This document shows positions 38,656 through 59,134 of a DNA stretch of 64,000 nucleotides, one piece after another. A program made the translations under genes and the position numbers. This stretch comes from Pseudomonadota bacterium. Lineage in GTDB: Bacteria; CALINM01. The stretch is taken from contig JAOABK010000003.1 of NCBI GenBank assembly GCA_026418415.1, positions 1,685 through 65,684 on the forward strand, in the 5' to 3' direction. The notes beneath the pieces were generated by a model. The model did no database searches. It saw only the letters and a program-made list of their open reading frames with translations, and was not told the origin of the DNA. Every line of letters starts with the position of its first letter. Position 1 is the first letter of the stretch.

Positions 38656-40164
38656 TTAAAAATGTACCTCAAATGTTGCATATATATTTGTAGCTTTTTC
38701 AATTGGCGACATCATCTGTGCATTCATAGGATTATCAAGGGCATCAATATCAACTGGCGCACCCACCCAGTTATTACTTCCAGTGTAATCAAACTGATAG
38801 TATTGATAGCCTAACTTAAAAAATGCTTTTGCGTTAAATGATGATATTGCCTTCTGTTTAATTTCCTGAATGATGTAGGCTTCATAAACATTTCCCCTTG
38901 TACCTAACTTGCTTGTCCATATATCATCTGCTGCTGGTGCAAAGGTTATCCAATTTTTCGTTCCGTGGTTATATTCAAGTCCTATTTTAGTGCCCGTTGA
39001 TTCAATGTCATATCTTCCACCTAAATATATAGCATATCCAGTTTTAGAATTTTTGTTTTCCATAGGATTTAAAAGAAGCCCAGTACCAAAGGGGCCTGAT
39101 TTTTCATGAGGATCTGTAATACTTGCTGCAGCACTTACAAACCAGTTGAGGCTACCTGCACCTACATTCTTAACTTTACCAAGAACAGTTGCACCATACC
39201 AATCGATGTTGCCCAAAGATGTTGTTGTTGGTCCTGTAGGAAATCCGGGGAATACTTCTTTCATAACAGGTGCATCAAAAATATTCATACCTCTATTCCA
39301 TTGTAAGAAAACTGTTAACTTTTCAGTATCATAGGGTACTAACTGAACACCAAACATATCAGTATCATCTAAACTATTTGTTGCGGTCTGAAATCCACTT
39401 TCAAAGCCTCTACCATAACAAATTTTAACATAAGCACCTGGCAGAGCTTCGATGTCTGGAGCATAACCTAATGTCATTCCATCAAATGCATAATCAACCA
39501 AAAGTGCAGGAGTTCCACTTACATCTGGTTTTGGTGCATTTTGTTTTAAATGTGTGGGAATACCACCAGTAGACGGTCTTCTACCTACAGAAAACCATAA
39601 AGGCTGTCCAAGAATATTGTTCCATGTAGCATATGCGGTATCTACATAAAGGGTATTGTCATTGGGAATATGCCCTACTATGCCATCAAAAACACCTGCT
39701 CTGTCGGCAAAAAATGGTCCCAAAACAGCGCTTGAATCTTGAGCACCACTTACCTTATTCATAACCAATCTTGCTGTTACTGAAACATCCTGAGTTGCTT
39801 TAATTTTCAAGTTAAGACCAAACCTATTAGTATAAAGAGAGTCATTCTCAACTGTCTGTTTAGCCATTGGAATTGGAACAAAGGGATTAATTGGATTAAA
39901 CTGCCAGTAATTGGGCATATCAGCTCTCAATACATCAACACGAAATCTGTAATCACCACCTAACGTAAACCATTTTGAGATGTTAGTGCTTTCTGTCTTT
40001 TCAATTCTTTTTTGTTGATCCTGCAGCTGCTTTTTCAATGTTTCAATCTCTTTCTGTAGATTCTCGATCTTCTTTTCAATAGCTTCTTGAGCATTAGCAC
40101 TTCCAATCATTAATAAAATAACCGCTATTGAACTAAGTTTTTTCAAAAACCCCTTTAGCTTCAT
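38656..40164 (-). CDS. Putative outer-membrane beta-barrel (porin-like) protein with N-terminal coiled coil
   Basis: Signal peptide ending ANAQE; coiled coil (IENLQKEIETLKKQLQDQQKRIEK); alternating amphipathic beta-strand pattern; C-terminal ...FEVHF. Confidence 0.55.
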   Translation of the reverse strand: MKLKGFLKKLSSIAVILLMIGSANAQEAIEKKIENLQKEIETLKKQLQDQQKRIEKTESTNISKWFTLGGDYRFRVDVLRADMPNYWQFNPINPFVPIPMAKQTVENDSLYTNRFGLNLKIKATQDVSVTARLVMNKVSGAQDSSAVLGPFFADRAGVFDGIVGHIPNDNTLYVDTAYATWNNILGQPLWFSVGRRPSTGGIPTHLKQNAPKPDVSGTPALLVDYAFDGMTLGYAPDIEALPGAYVKICYGRGFESGFQTATNSLDDTDMFGVQLVPYDTEKLTVFLQWNRGMNIFDAPVMKEVFPGFPTGPTTTSLGNIDWYGATVLGKVKNVGAGSLNWFVSAAASITDPHEKSGPFGTGLLLNPMENKNSKTGYAIYLGGRYDIESTGTKIGLEYNHGTKNWITFAPAADDIWTSKLGTRGNVYEAYIIQEIKQKAISSFNAKAFFKLGYQYYQFDYTGSNNWVGAPVDIDALDNPMNAQMMSPIEKATNIYATFEVHF

Positions 40165-40282
40165 AATACCTCCTTTTATTATATTATTAACTTTAATTCT
40201 ATATTTAAGTTAACCATTCGTAAAGCAATTTAATTAATATTTTCTCATTTTAATTTTTGTTATTATATAACGTAACATTTTA

Positions 40283-41728
40283 TTAATTTTTCTTCCCTTC
40301 GGTTTTCTGTACTTCCTTTTTGCTATTTATTAGTTCAGATCTGGTACCAAATTTCATTGGATCACCCTTGTAACCCAATGCCTTCCAGTCAAGCCTCTTC
40401 CCTCCCATATGGCATTCGTCACATCTGAGGGCTTTCTCTTTTGGAGCTACCTCATGATTAATACTTCCATAAAAGGCGGTTTCAACAAATTCATATTTTC
40501 CACTGAATGGAAGTTGTGAACCTAAGGCGCCTTCTACAAGTGCTTTTTCCCAGTTATGATGGCTCCATAAGCCTTTGTAAAGTTTAGGTATCAGTAAATA
40601 CTTGTATTCACTATCCATAGGTTGCTTACCAGTATGGACTTTAAAAGGATAAATTTTGGCATTCCTATCCATAATATTTCCAACGGGCTTTGAAATATAG
40701 ACAACATCTTTAGGATTGGAAATTTTATCGCCCTTTAGATATCTTTCTATTTTTCCATTGTACCATGCATATGTAGGCTTGACATTCATTGCCCATTCAA
40801 ATGTACCCTTATGTTTTACATAGGTTTCCCTTCCAAACTGTTCTTCTGGTTCAATATCCTTTCCTACTGTTGACCAATCCCATCTCATCTTTGTTGGCTT
40901 AGCTTTTGCAAAATAGGGGATATGGCAAGTCTGACAGGCTACAGTATTCAAATGTTTATCAATTATTTTACCTGACTTACTTTCAGCATGGGGTTTTTTA
41001 TGGCAGTCTTCACAGCTAACCCTTCCCTCATTTGTCGCTAAAAACGTTGAAGCACCTGAAATCTTATGCTCATTAGTTACATGACATGCCTGGCAAGTCA
41101 TATCAGCAACACCACCCATATGAACATCATGTTCCCTTTTCGGTTTTACAAGAGAACTATCTAAATCACCATGTTTGACCCCTTCTCCACCGCCACCATA
41201 AAAATGGCAGACTCCACAGTTTTCTCTTTTAGGTTTACCAACACTTTGAGCAACTTTTGTAAGTGACATAATACCTTTATCAATTAATGTTTTATCAGGT
41301 TCTCCAGAAAGCCCCTTTTGATAATTTCCTTCCCTTGCATGACAAATAAGACAGTCTATTTTTTCTTTATTGCTAAAATCGAATGTGTTATCCTTCCAGC
41401 CATAGCCGGGATGACACTTTGTACAGAACTCTGCATTACTACACTTATCTCCACCTTCTATGGATATGCAGAAATTGTTAATAAGATTGCTCTTACCATA
41501 CTCTTCCTTAGAATTTTCTTTCCCCTTAACTGTTCTTGGAACTCCTTTCCATTTCCAGTGAGACGTTTTGATAAAATCACTCGCTTGCTTATCATGGCAC
41601 TCCAAACATGCCTTTGTTACTTCTTCTCCACTTTTAAAAGGACCAGTAATAAACTTTGAATGATCTTCAGCAATTGCTAAATAAGCCCCGATAAGGACTA
41701 TAGCTAAACCCCAAAAAAACCTTTTCAT
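40283..41728 (-). CDS. Periplasmic octaheme c-type cytochrome
   Basis: Signal peptide; eight CxxCH motifs (CLECH, CTKCH, CLICH, CGVCH, CQACH, CEDCH, CQTCH, CDECH) in 481 aa. Confidence 0.8.
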   Translation of the reverse strand: MKRFFWGLAIVLIGAYLAIAEDHSKFITGPFKSGEEVTKACLECHDKQASDFIKTSHWKWKGVPRTVKGKENSKEEYGKSNLINNFCISIEGGDKCSNAEFCTKCHPGYGWKDNTFDFSNKEKIDCLICHAREGNYQKGLSGEPDKTLIDKGIMSLTKVAQSVGKPKRENCGVCHFYGGGGEGVKHGDLDSSLVKPKREHDVHMGGVADMTCQACHVTNEHKISGASTFLATNEGRVSCEDCHKKPHAESKSGKIIDKHLNTVACQTCHIPYFAKAKPTKMRWDWSTVGKDIEPEEQFGRETYVKHKGTFEWAMNVKPTYAWYNGKIERYLKGDKISNPKDVVYISKPVGNIMDRNAKIYPFKVHTGKQPMDSEYKYLLIPKLYKGLWSHHNWEKALVEGALGSQLPFSGKYEFVETAFYGSINHEVAPKEKALRCDECHMGGKRLDWKALGYKGDPMKFGTRSELINSKKEVQKTEGKKN

Positions 41729-51369: not shown

Positions 51370-52887
51370 TTACCTTTCTTCTGTTGCCTTAGCAATCTTT
51401 TTTAATAAGCTTAACCCTCTATCAATTAGTTCTTTATCATCTTTATTTTTAAGGTATAAAGTTTGATAGGATTCGTAAAGCCACTGTGTTATCTCTTCCT
51501 TCAAATCCACAGGTAGATATGTTTTATCAAGAGCATTTCTTACTTTTGATGGTGATGATAATAGAAGTTCTTCATTTGTAATCTTTTCTAAAGCTATTAA
51601 GATAGAACGCTGTACCGATGAGAGATTTAAACTTCCTTCACTTTTCTTAGATTCTTCTTTTAATTCTTTTCTTTGAGTTTTTTTGCTTCTTACATAAAGT
51701 ACTATCGTTGTTATTGTGACAAATACAAAAAATCCTAAAAATAAATAAAAATCGTAATCAGGTCTTATTCTTATATTTAGATTTTTTTCGTAATCTTCTT
51801 TTTCTTTTGATACTGGATTGCTTGGTATATGCACTTTTACTGTTCTAGTAAAAGATGATAGATTTTTAAAAGAATTGTTAATAGGATTGAATATTTGTAA
51901 TGAAGGGGTTTTGATTGTATAAACACCATCTGAAGGGGGGATAAAAAAATATGTGAAATTATTATTTCCCCTATACTCTGGGAATTTACTAAAATAGTCT
52001 TTTTTATCTTCCTTTAAAAAAACCTCTACACTTGGTGATACCTCTAAATTTATTGGTTTTATTTGCTCTAAAAACCCAGTTCCACTTACACTTATGTCAA
52101 TTTGTACTGCATTATTTTCAGTAGCGGTATAGGGATTTATCTTTATTGAATAGTCACCTATCAGGAATTTTTCTTCTCCCTGTTTTATCTCCTTAACATC
52201 AAATTTGAGCGTACTCGTTGAGAACATAAGCTCTTTATTTAAAAAATTTTTAACAGCAATCTTTAAAGGAGCTAAATTATATTTGCCTTCTTTTGTGAAT
52301 ATTGCTGAATAAATAATCTCTCTTCTGCCATCCTTTTTTAATCTTTCTTCTACCTTTTCAACTATTACACCTTCCCAGCCTGGCCAAAAAATATTCATTT
52401 CTTTTATTGTTGAGGGAACATCAACTATTAAATAAGCAGGCATATATTTGTAAAAATCTTTGTGTGGTATAATTGTATAGAATTTAGGAGGGGCGTCTTG
52501 GGATTTCTGTTTAACATCGTTAAAAACTATATTTTCATCATCTCTAACCTCTATGCTTACTTTATTAACGGAAACTGAGCCACCTAAAAGATCATGAAAG
52601 ACAAAGGGACCCAATTCATATCTCCCCTCCTTTTCAAAAATACAGTATAGGTCTAATCTATTAAGATATTGCCCCTTAAAAGTTGTTGTTAGTAATTGAT
52701 TTACTATCAGACTATTTTCTGGTGAAAGAAAAATTGGAGTACTTTTTATAGGATTTTCAGTATTAAAATTTAAAGTTATTTTGGTCAATCTGTTTGTGAT
52801 TGTAGTGTTAATTTCCTGAGCAAAAAGAAAACTTGGGATTATTAGATAAATTAAAAAAAGGATTCTTTTTAAGACATGGGACATCAA
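51370..52887 (-). CDS. Hypothetical signal-peptide protein with one C-terminal TM and Lys-rich cytoplasmic tail (BatD-like topology)
   Basis: Signal peptide, ~370-aa exoplasmic region, single TM (LFLGFFVFVTITTIVLYV), ~110-aa cytoplasmic tail. Confidence 0.4.
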   Translation of the reverse strand: MMSHVLKRILFLIYLIIPSFLFAQEINTTITNRLTKITLNFNTENPIKSTPIFLSPENSLIVNQLLTTTFKGQYLNRLDLYCIFEKEGRYELGPFVFHDLLGGSVSVNKVSIEVRDDENIVFNDVKQKSQDAPPKFYTIIPHKDFYKYMPAYLIVDVPSTIKEMNIFWPGWEGVIVEKVEERLKKDGRREIIYSAIFTKEGKYNLAPLKIAVKNFLNKELMFSTSTLKFDVKEIKQGEEKFLIGDYSIKINPYTATENNAVQIDISVSGTGFLEQIKPINLEVSPSVEVFLKEDKKDYFSKFPEYRGNNNFTYFFIPPSDGVYTIKTPSLQIFNPINNSFKNLSSFTRTVKVHIPSNPVSKEKEDYEKNLNIRIRPDYDFYLFLGFFVFVTITTIVLYVRSKKTQRKELKEESKKSEGSLNLSSVQRSILIALEKITNEELLLSSPSKVRNALDKTYLPVDLKEEITQWLYESYQTLYLKNKDDKELIDRGLSLLKKIAKATEER

Positions 52888-52907: not shown

Positions 52908-53765
52908 TTAGTTATTCAAATTGTCTTGTTTTTCCGATAGAAGGGTTTTTAATTTTTTAAGAGCCTTTTCTTCAATCTGTCTTACCCTCTCTCTCGTAAT
53001 GCCTAATTCATCTCCAACTTCTTGCAAAGTTTTAGGATTTTCATCGAGGATCCTTCTTTCTATAACAAATCTTTCCTTTTCGTTTAGTTTCGAAAGAGCA
53101 TCTTTAATACGTTGAGCATTATAAAGCCTCTCGTCTTCCTCTTCTAATTTCTCTGCATAATTTTCCCGTGTATCTGGTATAACATCGAGAAGTTTTTGCT
53201 CAGTTTCAGGTGAAGTATACTCTAAAGAAAAGTCCCTTCCAGAAAGCCTCAGCTCCATCTCTGTTACTTCTACTGGTTTTACATCAAGGATCTCTGCTAT
53301 GGCTTCAACAGTTGGTCCTTCTATGTTTTTTTGCTCCAGCTCTCGTTTAATTTTACCTAAGTTATAAAAAAGCTTTCTTTGATTCTGGGTTGTGCCAACC
53401 TTTATAAGGCTATAATTGTTCATGATATAAGCCTGAATATAGGCTCTAATCCACCAAACAGCATAGGATATCAATCTATAATTCTTATAGGGGTTAAATT
53501 TTTTTACAGCCATCATTAATCCAATTGTACCTTCCTGAATTAAGTCCATAATATTAAAACCATATTCCGCATACTCATGAGCAATCTTAACTACAAACCT
53601 AAGATTTGCTGTAACAAGAGTCTTTGCTAAATCAACATCCTTTGTTTCGTAATACTTTATTGCAATTCTTCTTTCCTCTTCTGGTGAAAGAACAGGGTAG
53701 GACTGTATCTCCTTAAGATATAACTCTAACTCTGTAGGTTTTTGAATCTGTAATTCCTTTGTCAA
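52908..53765 (-). CDS. rpoH: RNA polymerase sigma factor, RpoH (sigma-32)-like
   Basis: Sigma70 regions 2-4 (FVVKIAHEY, DLIQEGTIGLM, region 4 HTH); RpoH-box-like QRKLFYNLGKIKREL. ORF track start is GTG 53789; I prefer TTG 53763-53765 preceded by GGAGGA SD. Confidence 0.65.
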   Translation of the reverse strand: MTKELQIQKPTELELYLKEIQSYPVLSPEEERRIAIKYYETKDVDLAKTLVTANLRFVVKIAHEYAEYGFNIMDLIQEGTIGLMMAVKKFNPYKNYRLISYAVWWIRAYIQAYIMNNYSLIKVGTTQNQRKLFYNLGKIKRELEQKNIEGPTVEAIAEILDVKPVEVTEMELRLSGRDFSLEYTSPETEQKLLDVIPDTRENYAEKLEEEDERLYNAQRIKDALSKLNEKERFVIERRILDENPKTLQEVGDELGITRERVRQIEEKALKKLKTLLSEKQDNLNN

Positions 53766-53782
53766 TTTTAATCCTCCAAAAA

Positions 53783-53809
53783 TTAGCACTCAAAGGGGTT
53801 AAGTGCTAA
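53783..53809. promoter_or_regulatory. CIRCE element (HrcA operator) in the leader of the rpoH-like gene
   Basis: TTAGCACTC-AAAGGGGTT-AAGTGCTAA read directly; matches consensus TTAGCACTC-N9-GAGTGCTAA with one mismatch; ~18 nt upstream of the proposed rpoH start. Confidence 0.7.
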
Positions 53810-53927
53810 TTAAAATATAATCTTGCTTTTCTATTTTGTCAACATAACCATTTTTAAATTTATCATCTTATTATAGACAATTTTACACAAAAAAGATAAA
53901 ATTTATTAAAAACAGGGGGGATACTTT

Positions 53928-54932
53928 ATGGCAATAGATAACCAAAAAGCAAAAGCTCTGGAGGCAACCCTTTCTCAGATAGAAAAGCAGTTTGGAAAAG
54001 GTTCTATAATGAAATTAGGGGAAAAGAAACAGGAAACGATAGATGTAATCCCCACAGGCTCTATTGGGCTTGATTTAGCATTAGGAGTTGGAGGTGTTCC
54101 AAGGGGCAGGATTGTTGAGATCTATGGACCAGAGTCATCTGGTAAGACCACTCTTTGTCTCCATATAATTGCTGAAGCGCAGAAAAAAGGAGGTATAGCA
54201 GCATTTATTGATGCAGAACATGCCCTTGATGTAAACTATGCCCGCTCATTAGGTGTAAATACCGATGACTTATTAATTTCCCAGCCTGATACTGGAGAAC
54301 AGGCATTAGAAATAGCAGATTATTTAGTTAGAAGCAATGCAGTAGATGTTATAGTTATAGACTCTGTTGCTGCATTAGTTCCAAAAGCAGAGATTGAAGG
54401 TGAGATGGGAGATGCCCATATGGGGCTTCAGGCGAGGTTAATGTCACAGGCTTTAAGAAAGCTTACTGCAAATATATCAAAGACCGGTACAACAGTAATT
54501 TTTACAAACCAGATACGCATGAAAATAGGTGTTTTCTTTGGTAATCCTGAAACCACAACCGGTGGTTATGCTCTAAAATTTTATGCATCAGTTAGAATGG
54601 ATATAAGACCTGTTGGCCCAATTAAAGAGGGGAATGACAAGATCGGAACAAGAACTAAGGTTAAAGTTGTGAAAAACAAAGTGGCTCCTCCCTTTAGAGA
54701 GGCTGAGTTTGATATCCTATACGGTGTGGGAATTTCAAGGGAAGGAGAGGTCATCGATTTAGGTTCAGATCTTGGCATAATTGAAAAAAGCGGTGCATGG
54801 TATTCCTACAAGGGAGAGAGAATAGGTCAAGGAAAAGAGAATGCCAAACAATATCTCAAGGAACATCCTGATATTTTAGTAGAGATAGAAAATATGATTT
54901 TAGAAAAATTTGGGCTTCCAAAGAGGAGTTAA
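53928..54932 (+). CDS. recA: Recombinase A
   Basis: Walker [11 protein letters not shown]1/L2 loops, FIDAEHALD; unmistakable. Confidence 0.95.
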
Positions 54933-54934
54933 CT

Positions 54935-56092
54935 TTGACACCTAAAGAAAAGCTTGATGAAATTTTGAAGGTGGCTGTTAAAGTAGGTGCTTCGGATATA
55001 CACCTAAAACCTGGTAAACCACCAATTTTCAGAATTGATGATAAACTAACGAGTTTAAAAAACGCTCCCGTTCTTAGCTTTCAGGAAGCAAGTGAGATGC
55101 TATTTAGCATGCTCTCTGAAAAACAGAAAGAGGAATTTGAAAAAAGAATGGACATGGATTTTGCTTACAGTGTCTCTGGAATTGGCAGATTTAGGGTAAA
55201 TCTTTATAAACAGAGGGGTTCTCCCTGCGCAGTTATGAGAGCAATACCCTTTAACATAAAAACAGTTAAAGAACTGAATTTACCGCCAATACTTGAAAAA
55301 ATTGCATCAGAAAGAAGGGGACTAATACTTGTAACGGGAACAACAGGGTCTGGTAAATCAACAACTCTTGCTTCTATGATTGATTATATGAATAATAATT
55401 TTAACTACAATATAATAACAATAGAAGACCCTATAGAATTCCTTTTTAGAGATAATAAATGTATCATAAATCAAAGAGAAGTTGGTTTTGACACCCTTTC
55501 CTTTAGCAATGCCCTTCGTGCAGCACTTAGGCAGGATCCCGATGTTATATTTGTTGGTGAAATGAGAGACATGGAGACCATAGAGATTGCTCTTACTGCT
55601 GCAGAAACTGGACATCTGGTTTTAAGCACCTTACATACCCTTGACGCTACAGAGACAGTAAATAGGATAATTGGTATTTTTCCTCCCCATCAACAACAAC
55701 AAATAAGGTATCAGCTTTCCGCTACAATAAAGGCGGTCATATCACAAAGGCTTGTTCCTAAAATTGATGGAAGAGGGAGAGTTCCTGCTGTTGAAATTAT
55801 GATCGCAACGAATAGGATAAAAGAATATATAGAAGATCCAGAAAAAACAAAATTGATAAGACAAGCTATTTCTGAAGGGCATTCTGTATATGGCATGCAG
55901 ACCTTTGATCAGAGCCTTCTTGATCTTTGCAAGAAAAAACTAATTACCTATGAAGAGGGGCTTAAGAACGCAACAAGTCCATCGGATTTTGCTCTTGCCA
56001 TGAGTGGTATTGATACCTCTTCAGACAAAACACAATGGCAGAAAGAAAGTCAACAAGAGCAAGAAGGAACTCCGAAAATAGAGAAGTTTTAA
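54935..56092 (+). CDS. pilT: Type IV pilus retraction ATPase PilT (twitching motility protein)
   Basis: GTTGSGKSTT Walker A, PilT-type Asp box and His box, AIRNxLR-like region. Confidence 0.85.
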   Translation: MTPKEKLDEILKVAVKVGASDIHLKPGKPPIFRIDDKLTSLKNAPVLSFQEASEMLFSMLSEKQKEEFEKRMDMDFAYSVSGIGRFRVNLYKQRGSPCAVMRAIPFNIKTVKELNLPPILEKIASERRGLILVTGTTGSGKSTTLASMIDYMNNNFNYNIITIEDPIEFLFRDNKCIINQREVGFDTLSFSNALRAALRQDPDVIFVGEMRDMETIEIALTAAETGHLVLSTLHTLDATETVNRIIGIFPPHQQQQIRYQLSATIKAVISQRLVPKIDGRGRVPAVEIMIATNRIKEYIEDPEKTKLIRQAISEGHSVYGMQTFDQSLLDLCKKKLITYEEGLKNATSPSDFALAMSGIDTSSDKTQWQKESQQEQEGTPKIEKF

Positions 56093-56520
56093 TCTGGAAT
56101 TATGCCTGCGACCTTTTAAGTAGGCGTATTTATTCAGAAAGGGAACTCCAAAACAAGTTACAAAAAAGGTATCCTCAAGATACAGAAATAGTAAATACCA
56201 TAATAGAAAAGCTAAAATATTACAAATATCTTAACGATTCCGAAAATGCAAAAATTTTAATTGAGCACCTTAAAAACAAAGGTTATGGTCCAAGGTATAT
56301 CACGAGCTATCTTTTAAGAAAAGGGTTTGTTGACATAAACTGGGATGTAAATTATGATTACAACATGATGAAAAAATGGTATGAAAAGAAAAGGGGTAAC
56401 GAAAAAATTAGAGATTTAAAAACCTTTAGAAAAATGTATAATTACCTTCTAAGCAAAGGTTTTTTATCAGAAGAAATTATAGAATTTTTAAAAGGATGGA
56501 CAGATTATGAAAGGGAGTGA
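56035..56520 (+). CDS. recX: RecA regulator RecX
   Basis: RecX-like three-helix repeats (YACDLLSRRIYSERELQNKLQKRY...); ORF-track start overlaps the pilT 3' end by 58 nt, so the true start is uncertain. Confidence 0.65.
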   Translation: MAERKSTRARRNSENREVLIWNYACDLLSRRIYSERELQNKLQKRYPQDTEIVNTIIEKLKYYKYLNDSENAKILIEHLKNKGYGPRYITSYLLRKGFVDINWDVNYDYNMMKKWYEKKRGNEKIRDLKTFRKMYNYLLSKGFLSEEIIEFLKGWTDYERE

Positions 56521-59134
56521 GATAAGAAAAAAGTTCCTTGATTATTTTGCAGGGCATTATCATCAGGTAGTAAAAAGTTCAAGCCTCGTTCCAAAAAACG
56601 ATCCAACCCTTCTTTTTACAAATGCTGGCATGAACCAGTTTAAAGATTGTTTTTTAGGGATTGAGAAAAGATCTTATAAAAGGGCTTGCAGTGTACAAAA
56701 ATGTGTAAGAGCAGGAGGAAAGCATAACGACCTTGAAAACGTTGGATATACAGCAAGACATCATACATTTTTTGAAATGCTTGGTAATTTCTCCTTTGGT
56801 GACTATTTCAAAAAGGATGCTATCTTTTATGGCTGGGATTTTTTAACAAGAGAAATGGGGCTTCCAAAGGAAAAACTTTGGGTAACTATTTATAAAGATG
56901 ATGATGAGGCTTTTGAACTATGGCAAGAGGTTGCAGGGGTTAAACCTGAAAGAATAGTTAGACTTGGAGAAAAGGATAATTTCTGGGCAATGGGCGATGA
57001 AGGCCCTTGCGGTCCCTGTTCTGAAATTATTATTGATCAGGGAGAACACGTTGGGTGTGGAAGTAAAGATTGCGCTGTTGGATGTGATTGCGATAGATTT
57101 CTTGAATTATGGAATTTAGTTTTCATGCAATATAATAGATTTAAAGATGGAACTCTTGAACCACTACCTAACCCAAGCATTGATACAGGAATGGGACTGG
57201 AAAGAATAACCGCTGTAATTCAAGGAAAACCTTCTAATTTTGAAACCGATTTGTTATTCCCCTATATTGAAAAAATGGCTAAACTTGCAGGAGTTGAATA
57301 CGGTCGGGATAAAAAAATAGATGTCCATCTAAGGGTAATAGCAGACCATATAAGGGCTATGACCTTTCTTATTTCAGATGGTGTTTTCCCCTCAAATGAA
57401 GGCAGGGGTTATGTTTTAAGACGCATTATGAGAAGGGCAATAAGGCATGCAAAGATGCTTGGTTTTGATAAGCCAGTGCTTTTCAATTTAACAGAAGAAG
57501 TGGTCAGAGTAATGAAAGATGCCTACCCTGAGCTTTCTGATACAATAGAGCTTGTTAAAAAGGTTGTTCATAATGAAGAAGAACGCTTTTTTGAGACCCT
57601 TGATAGTGGATTAAAGATTCTTTTTGAACATCTCGAAAAAATGAAGAAAAAAGGGGAGAAGGTCTTTTCTGGAGAAATTGCTTTCAAGCTCTATGATACC
57701 TATGGATTCCCAATTGATCTTACACAGGATATTTTAAGGGAGCAGAATATTCAAGTTGATATGGCTGAGTTTGAAAACTTCATGGAAAAACAAAGAGAAA
57801 CTGCAAGAAAACATTGGAAGGGAGAAGAAGAAGCAATAGATAGCATTTACAAGAGCCTTGCTCAGGAAATAAAAGTGGATTTTGTAGGATACGATACCCT
57901 TGTAGGTGAAGGTAAAGTAATTAAATTAATACAAAATGGTTTTACGGTAAAAGAGATGTTAGAGGGTGAAGAAGGTGAGATAATCACAGATAGAACTCCC
58001 TTTTATGGTGAATCAGGTGGTCAGGTAGGAGATGTTGGTACCATTGAATCAGACAACTTCATCTTTGAAGTTACTGATACAAAAAGATTTAGCGATTTGA
58101 TAATACATCGTGGGAAGGTGTTAAAGGGAGCAATAAAGGAAAATGACAAATGCCTCTTACGAGTAAAAGACGACTTAAGAGATAATACAATGTCACATCA
58201 TACTGCAACCCACTTATTACAGTCTGCATTACAAAAGGTTTTAGGTCCCCATGTAAAGCAAGCGGGTAGTTTGGTAACCCCTGATAGATTAAGGTTTGAT
58301 TTTACTCATTTTGCTCAGGTAACAAAAGAAGAATTAAACACCATAGAAGAGCTTGTAAATCAGTGGATTAGAGAAAACAGAAAAGTCCATATAGATTATT
58401 TGCCCTATGATGAAGCTATAAAAAAGGGTGCGATGGCAATTTTCGGCGAAAAATACGGCGATATAGTCCGACTCGTAGAAGTTGAGGGCGTAAGCAAAGA
58501 ATTATGTGGTGGTACCCATCAAAAATACACAGGCAACATAGGTGTTTTTAAAATTGTCTCCGAAGAGAGTGTTGCTTCTGGTGTGCGACGTATTGAAGCA
58601 TGCGCTGGATTGGCAGGAATGAAATTTATAAAAGAGAGAGAATCTCTTATTGAAAGATGTTCTTTAGCACTCAAAACTAGTCCTCAGGATTTAGAAGCGA
58701 AATTAGAAAGAATGCTAAAAAGGGAAAAAGAACTTGAAAGGGAGCTTGAATCTCTAAAATCACGCCTCTTAAAATATGAACTACAAGAAGCGATAAAAAT
58801 AAAAACATTATCAAAGGGTATTAAACTTGTTACCGCTGAAGTTAAGGTTAGTAATGCTGAAGAGATGAGAAATGTCCTGGACAGTATAAAAAACAAACAC
58901 ATAGATTCAATTATTTTTATTTTAGCATCTATGGAGGAAAAAAATAGTTGTTTACTTTATGTACCCGATAATTTGACAGATAATTACGATGCAGGAAAGT
59001 TACTACAGGATATAACAAAACCGTTAGGTGGTAGAGGTGGTGGGAAAAAGGGTCTGGCACAGGGTGGATTCCCAAAAGAAGTTGCCTTCGAAAAAATTGT
59101 TAATACATTATTTGATATGCTGGAGCAAAAATAA
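56507..59134 (+). CDS. alaS: Alanine--tRNA ligase
   Basis: Class II aaRS motifs, editing domain HxxxH/CxxxH, C-terminal DHHA1; 875 aa. Confidence 0.95.
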   Translation: MKGSEIRKKFLDYFAGHYHQVVKSSSLVPKNDPTLLFTNAGMNQFKDCFLGIEKRSYKRACSVQKCVRAGGKHNDLENVGYTARHHTFFEMLGNFSFGDYFKKDAIFYGWDFLTREMGLPKEKLWVTIYKDDDEAFELWQEVAGVKPERIVRLGEKDNFWAMGDEGPCGPCSEIIIDQGEHVGCGSKDCAVGCDCDRFLELWNLVFMQYNRFKDGTLEPLPNPSIDTGMGLERITAVIQGKPSNFETDLLFPYIEKMAKLAGVEYGRDKKIDVHLRVIADHIRAMTFLISDGVFPSNEGRGYVLRRIMRRAIRHAKMLGFDKPVLFNLTEEVVRVMKDAYPELSDTIELVKKVVHNEEERFFETLDSGLKILFEHLEKMKKKGEKVFSGEIAFKLYDTYGFPIDLTQDILREQNIQVDMAEFENFMEKQRETARKHWKGEEEAIDSIYKSLAQEIKVDFVGYDTLVGEGKVIKLIQNGFTVKEMLEGEEGEIITDRTPFYGESGGQVGDVGTIESDNFIFEVTDTKRFSDLIIHRGKVLKGAIKENDKCLLRVKDDLRDNTMSHHTATHLLQSALQKVLGPHVKQAGSLVTPDRLRFDFTHFAQVTKEELNTIEELVNQWIRENRKVHIDYLPYDEAIKKGAMAIFGEKYGDIVRLVEVEGVSKELCGGTHQKYTGNIGVFKIVSEESVASGVRRIEACAGLAGMKFIKERESLIERCSLALKTSPQDLEAKLERMLKREKELERELESLKSRLLKYELQEAIKIKTLSKGIKLVTAEVKVSNAEEMRNVLDSIKNKHIDSIIFILASMEEKNSCLLYVPDNLTDNYDAGKLLQDITKPLGGRGGGKKGLAQGGFPKEVAFEKIVNTLFDMLEQK

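Follow-up and report, generated by a model that had tools for sequence, protein, structure and literature searches.

A CIRCE palindrome at the predicted promoter of an rpoH-family sigma factor gene from an uncultured, AT-rich bacterium, and its recurrence among related loci

The stretch of DNA analysed here (64,000 nucleotides, hereafter the window) carries a CIRCE palindrome directly in front of a gene for an RpoH-family sigma factor, and this palindrome is, with high probability, a working operator for the repressor HrcA at the sigma-70-type promoter of rpoH. The sequence, position and conservation of the site predict HrcA binding at CIRCE, heat induction of the gene and the point at which its transcription starts. 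The features are listed below in the direction of rpoH transcription.

53837..53842, minus strand: -35 hexamer TTGACA of the predicted sigma-70-type promoter (promoter scan, 11/12)
53814..53819, minus strand: -10 hexamer TATATT, separated from the -35 by a 17-nt spacer (promoter scan)
53813-53810, minus strand: gap of 4 nt between the -10 and CIRCE
53783..53809, minus strand: putative CIRCE operator (17/18 consensus match, sole copy in the window, conserved position in relatives)
53809-53801, minus strand (gene strand): left arm of CIRCE, TTAGCACTT
53800-53792, minus strand (gene strand): spacer of CIRCE, AACCCCTTT
53791-53783, minus strand (gene strand): right arm of CIRCE, GAGTGCTAA
53782-53778, minus strand: gap of 5 nt between CIRCE and the Shine-Dalgarno sequence
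53772..53777, minus strand: Shine-Dalgarno sequence GGAGGA, 6 nt 5' of the TTG (direct reading; a GGAGG is likewise placed in the closest relative, L001)
53763..53765, minus strand: TTG start codon of rpoH (TTG at the equivalent position in L001)
52908..53765, minus strand: rpoH coding sequence, 285 aa plus stop (sigma-32 family profile matches)

On the plus strand, positions 53783-53809 read TTAGCACTCAAAGGGGTTAAGTGCTAA. Against the consensus used, TTAGCACTC-N9-GAGTGCTAA, the site agreed at 17 of the 18 arm positions with a spacer of exactly 9 nt, reproducing the match count and the N9 spacing claimed in a preliminary description of this DNA; the departing arm position is the innermost base, where the gene strand has T instead of C. 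No other match with three or fewer mismatches was found in the 64-kb window, where the runner-up CIRCE-like sites had 5-6 mismatches, and 100 dinucleotide-preserving shuffles yielded a mean of 0.01 matches at the same threshold. The chance expectation for a site with at most one mismatch, calculated from the base composition (32.6% GC), was 3.7e-5 per 64 kb. The CIRCE at 53783-53809 is therefore real, and chance is excluded.

Profile matches identify the minus-strand gene at 52908-53765 as an RpoH-family sigma factor, a sigma-32 homologue. Its product scored 307.9 bits against NF005143 (sigma-32 subfamily; curated cut-off 241) and 316.9 bits against TIGR02392 (proteobacterial RpoH equivalog), just under the cut-off of 323.1, and the scores obtained with the RpoS and RpoD models were far under their own cut-offs. 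Sigma-70 regions 1.2, 2, 3 and 4 were all present, with PF00140, PF04542, PF04539 and PF04545 above their cut-offs. The RpoH box, located between regions 2 and 3, has the consensus Q(R/K)(K/R)LFFNLR; the ORF contains QRKLFYNLG, identical at 7 of the 9 positions, plus a conservative change of F to Y. The motif QRKLFYNL had already been reported as the mark of an RpoH-like sigma factor, and both its presence in the ORF and the family assignment, with NF005143 above its cut-off, were borne out.

In the list of ORFs the gene starts at a GTG (53789-53787), which falls within the right arm of CIRCE; this had been pointed out before, together with the proposal that the true start is a downstream TTG, preceded by GGAGGA and about 18 nt from the operator. 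The GTG was indeed located in the right arm, 17 nt were counted between the end of that arm (53783) and the TTG (53765-53763), and GGAGGA was found at 53777-53772. Were the ORF to begin at GTG 53789, the right arm would be coding and the palindrome incidental. This GTG is in frame within the window and opens the longest ORF, but it has no ribosome-binding site of its own, whereas GGAGGA stands 6 nt before the TTG. In L001 the GTG in CIRCE lies 23 nt upstream of the TTG and out of frame, reading GTG CTA ATT TTA GGA GGC TAA, so that translation from it would stop after 6 codons, while GGAGG and the TTG are placed as in the window. Two other relatives (L002 and L003) start with ATG codons 20-22 nt past CIRCE. 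The frame and stop in L001, its GGAGG and TTG, and the two downstream ATGs thus support the TTG as the start of rpoH and the repeat as non-coding, and a start at the GTG is extremely improbable.

The TTGACA-17-TATATT arrangement received the top promoter score of the region in the promoter scan, and CIRCE is placed between its -10 box and the ribosome-binding site of rpoH. With the transcription start set about 7 nt after the -10, rpoH is predicted to be transcribed from near A53807, within the left arm of CIRCE; given this start, the operator would span roughly -2 to +25 and the rpoH leader would measure about 42 nt. CIRCE follows the promoter after 4 nt, so that the predicted start of transcription falls within the operator. 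A CIRCE at or just past the -10 of a housekeeping-sigma promoter, as found here for a start position that is predicted, is the classical placement of HrcA on such promoters. A second promoter-like site lying within CIRCE (53793-53765, 9/12) was discarded: its start would fall at or past the start codon, and it had no comparative support. Upstream of the -35, reading by eye revealed no sigma-32-type autoregulatory promoter (CTTGAAA...CCCCAT).

A single scan of species-representative genomes provided 80 loci encoding relatives of the window RpoH, mostly metagenome-assembled genomes (MAGs) titled Thermodesulfobacteriota, Deltaproteobacteria, Geobacter/Desulfuromonadales or Syntrophaceae, with one cultured member, Pelotalea chapellei DSM 13688. 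CIRCE (three or fewer mismatches) was present just upstream of rpoH in 63/80 loci, 34 of the sites being perfect, at 43-107 nt upstream of the start of the tblastn match, which usually began at residue 13; the palindrome thus precedes a heat-shock gene at a conserved orthologous position. In 1.08 Mb of flanking sequence no other CIRCE was detected, with about 0.3 expected by chance. Scoring covered 63 sites, from 62 loci and the window; in 60 of them CIRCE followed the end of the best sigma-70-type promoter at a distance of 0-6 nt, and the -35 was conserved in the relatives as TTGACA or TTGACT. A promoter score of at least 10/12 was reached in 31/62 loci; the corresponding figures were 2.3% for upstream regions after shuffling and 0.3% for 70-mers drawn at random from these loci. 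These results suggest that the promoter-CIRCE-rpoH arrangement is widespread among the relatives, and its recurrence supports the hierarchical reading of the preliminary description, in which HrcA controls RpoH.

The information content was 1.2-2.0 bits per position in the CIRCE arms and about 0 in the spacer; the arm values are partly imposed by the selection threshold, which leaves the contrast between arms and spacer unaffected. Arms that are near-invariant around a spacer free to vary indicate a protein operator. Alternatively, the main role of the repeat could lie in the rpoH mRNA, where it would form a 5'-terminal hairpin that affects stability or serves as a thermometer. Folding of the leader gave a stem of 11 bp, built from the repeat together with two neighbouring spacer bases (centroid -11.9 kcal/mol, z = -2.4), and the arm mismatch becomes a U-G wobble in RNA, leaving the stem intact. 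However, across the 63 loci the arms hold the consensus without covariation, and in 17 Geobacter-type loci a left arm TTAGCAGTC stands opposite an unchanged right arm GAGTGCTAA, which breaks one hairpin pair; what is conserved is therefore the sequence and not the pairing, the signature of a protein-binding operator. A transcription start within the left arm, as predicted, would moreover shorten the stem. An RNA thermometer was rejected as the main mechanism, given that no base of the Shine-Dalgarno sequence is paired in the centroid structure, in spite of the stable hairpin, and an Rfam scan of 53400-54000 found no family match beyond a miRNA at chance level (E = 0.8). With a free ribosome-binding site, no Rfam match and non-covarying arms, any effect at the RNA level is at most secondary, beside operator function, and a hairpin as the principal role of the repeat is very unlikely.

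The asymmetric CIRCE with TTAGCAGTC (C7 to G) is a lineage-specific operator variant of Geobacter/Desulfuromonadales-type loci (L018, L020, L024-L027, L030, L039, L042, L044, L045, L049, L055, L057, L060, L064 and L073). Its distance to the downstream rpoH match is about 80-100 nt in these loci, and the -10 box abuts the operator or is 1 nt away.

At the three-mismatch threshold, 17/80 related rpoH loci had no CIRCE upstream, indicating that the wiring of HrcA to rpoH is not universal. Among the loci without CIRCE (L016, L046, L051, L052, L054, L056, L058, L059, L061-L063, L066, L067, L072, L074, L075 and L080) are unclassified 'bacterium' MAGs that form a coherent group, with the match beginning at residue 16, as well as Bdellovibrionales, Myxococcales, Gammaproteobacteria, Acetobacteraceae and Omnitrophota.

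None of hrcA, groESL and dnaK was found within the 64-kb window. When E. coli GroEL and DnaK were searched with tblastn against the window and the 80 loci, one weak DnaK-like match was obtained (L029); an approximate B. subtilis HrcA query gave no match in the same set, a result that carries little weight. The absence of hrcA from the window would also be expected of a relic site, that is, of a genome which had lost hrcA and transcribed rpoH constitutively from the sigma-70 promoter, and some delta-proteobacteria, e.g. D. psychrophila, are without HrcA/CIRCE (PMC545781). However, at a GC content of 32.6% a match of 17/18 would erode fast unless selection maintained it, and L001, with 88% RpoH identity the closest relative, likewise retains 17/18; its spacer differs, and its mismatch falls in the opposite arm. 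We accordingly give a relic a very low probability; the presence of hrcA in the source genome is predicted from the conservation of the operator.

The rpoH gene is divergent from recA (53928-54932, plus strand) across a 162-bp intergenic region (53766-53927). Because this region is common to both genes, CIRCE might be thought to regulate recA and not rpoH, but the best promoter candidate on the recA side (53874-53902) has CIRCE about 65 nt upstream of it. Furthermore, recA adjoins rpoH in the window and L001 only, whereas a further 62 loci have CIRCE at rpoH; CIRCE thus travels with rpoH, whatever the upstream neighbour, and control of recA in place of rpoH has next to no probability.

Taking CIRCE as the HrcA operator of rpoH, the regulation would proceed as follows. 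In the absence of stress, GroEL/GroES would keep the HrcA dimer active, and active HrcA, bound over the rpoH transcription start, would block RNA polymerase. Unfolded proteins would titrate GroE and HrcA would come off the DNA, allowing rpoH to be transcribed, so that sigma-32 would rise and its regulon be switched on. HrcA would then stand above RpoH in a two-tier heat-shock cascade, sensing chaperone availability and setting the level of sigma-32, and the two classical heat-shock systems would probably be arranged in series, not in parallel, in the uncultured source lineage. The dependence on GroE would hold at rpoH by analogy with the Bacillus and Chlamydia paradigm, in which repression by HrcA/CIRCE is relieved by heat shock via GroE titration (PMC7053576, PMC8762339).

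The groESL and hrcA-grpE-dnaKJ operons of Bacillus subtilis, Chlamydia and many other organisms have the same 9-N9-9 palindrome, at or just past the -10 or the start of a housekeeping-sigma promoter, whereas in the window a regulator, the sigma factor, takes the place of a chaperone operon as the target, so that the output would be a cascade instead of direct chaperone induction. With E. coli the likeness lies in the gene product, sigma-32, under chaperone-mediated feedback. Control of rpoH in E. coli is mainly translational, through an mRNA thermosensor, and post-translational, through DnaK/GroE and FtsH; the gene has several promoters, of the sigma-70 and sigma-E types, and E. coli is not known to have HrcA/CIRCE. 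The window differs from it in a predicted transcriptional repressor site at a single recognisable promoter.

The arrangement itself has a precedent. In a CIRCE-profile search of delta-proteobacterial genomes, Rodionov et al. 2004 (PMC545781) listed TTAGCACTC-N9-GAGTGCTAA at -51 of rpoH in G. sulfurreducens (Table 8), which encodes hrcA and has CIRCE also at hrcA-grpE-dnaKJ and groESL. The preliminary description had set the window site apart from the usual direct control of groESL/dnaK by HrcA; rpoH as the target stood, but the case proved less exceptional than that description suggested, in view of this prediction for G. sulfurreducens in 2004 (PMC545781). In both cases CIRCE precedes the rpoH start codon by a few tens of nt, at -51 in G. 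sulfurreducens and, in the window, with the operator starting 44 nt ahead of the TTG, and the lineage is that of the former Deltaproteobacteria. G. sulfurreducens RpoH was reportedly the subject of experiments by Ueki and Lovley in 2007, with rpoH said to be heat-inducible from an RpoD-type promoter carrying CIRCE. In contrast to Geobacter, the source of the window is uncultured and AT-rich (32.6% GC), and its RpoH shares about 50% identity with those of Geobacter-type loci; in contrast to G. sulfurreducens in particular, the window has a single mismatch, at an innermost arm position, TTG as the start codon, a very short leader (about 42 nt, predicted) and recA as a divergent neighbour.

The window site is thus a further instance of an arrangement already predicted in Geobacter, differing from it in detail only, and for this reason it opens no new question; the gain is one of annotation, in that the rpoH start codon is fixed and a promoter and an operator are identified. 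The breadth of the arrangement may exceed the published record, as an extension and not as a new kind of system. The loci that carried CIRCE were titled Geobacter/Desulfuromonadales, Syntrophaceae and various Thermodesulfobacteriota, together with unclassified relatives. It is possible, albeit doubtful, that control of rpoH by HrcA is no peculiarity of Geobacter but ancestral and near-standard in a large part of the former Deltaproteobacteria. If so, the fixed geometry, with the -10 ending 0-6 nt before CIRCE, would place the entire sigma-32 regulon under a repressor that senses GroE and acts as its master switch, a breadth of wiring whose systematic documentation may perhaps be absent from the literature.

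As for the remaining genes, a minus-strand gene for a 505-aa protein with a BatD-like domain (51370-52887) lies on the rpoH strand, beginning 20 nt past the stop of that gene, and the two may be co-transcribed; a weak promoter-like site, at 52919-52892, extends across the rpoH stop. Beyond the gap between rpoH and recA, the plus strand carries a cluster (53928-59134) of recA, a PilT-like ATPase (T2SSE), recX and alaS, in which the PilT-like gene and the listed recX ORF share 58 nt at the end of the former, so that the true recX start may be further downstream. At 38656-41728 on the minus strand, the ORF translations contain a 481-aa protein rich in CxxCH haem-binding motifs, adjoined by a 502-aa ORF with a signal-peptide-like N-terminus, a pairing that could be connected with extracellular or periplasmic electron transfer.
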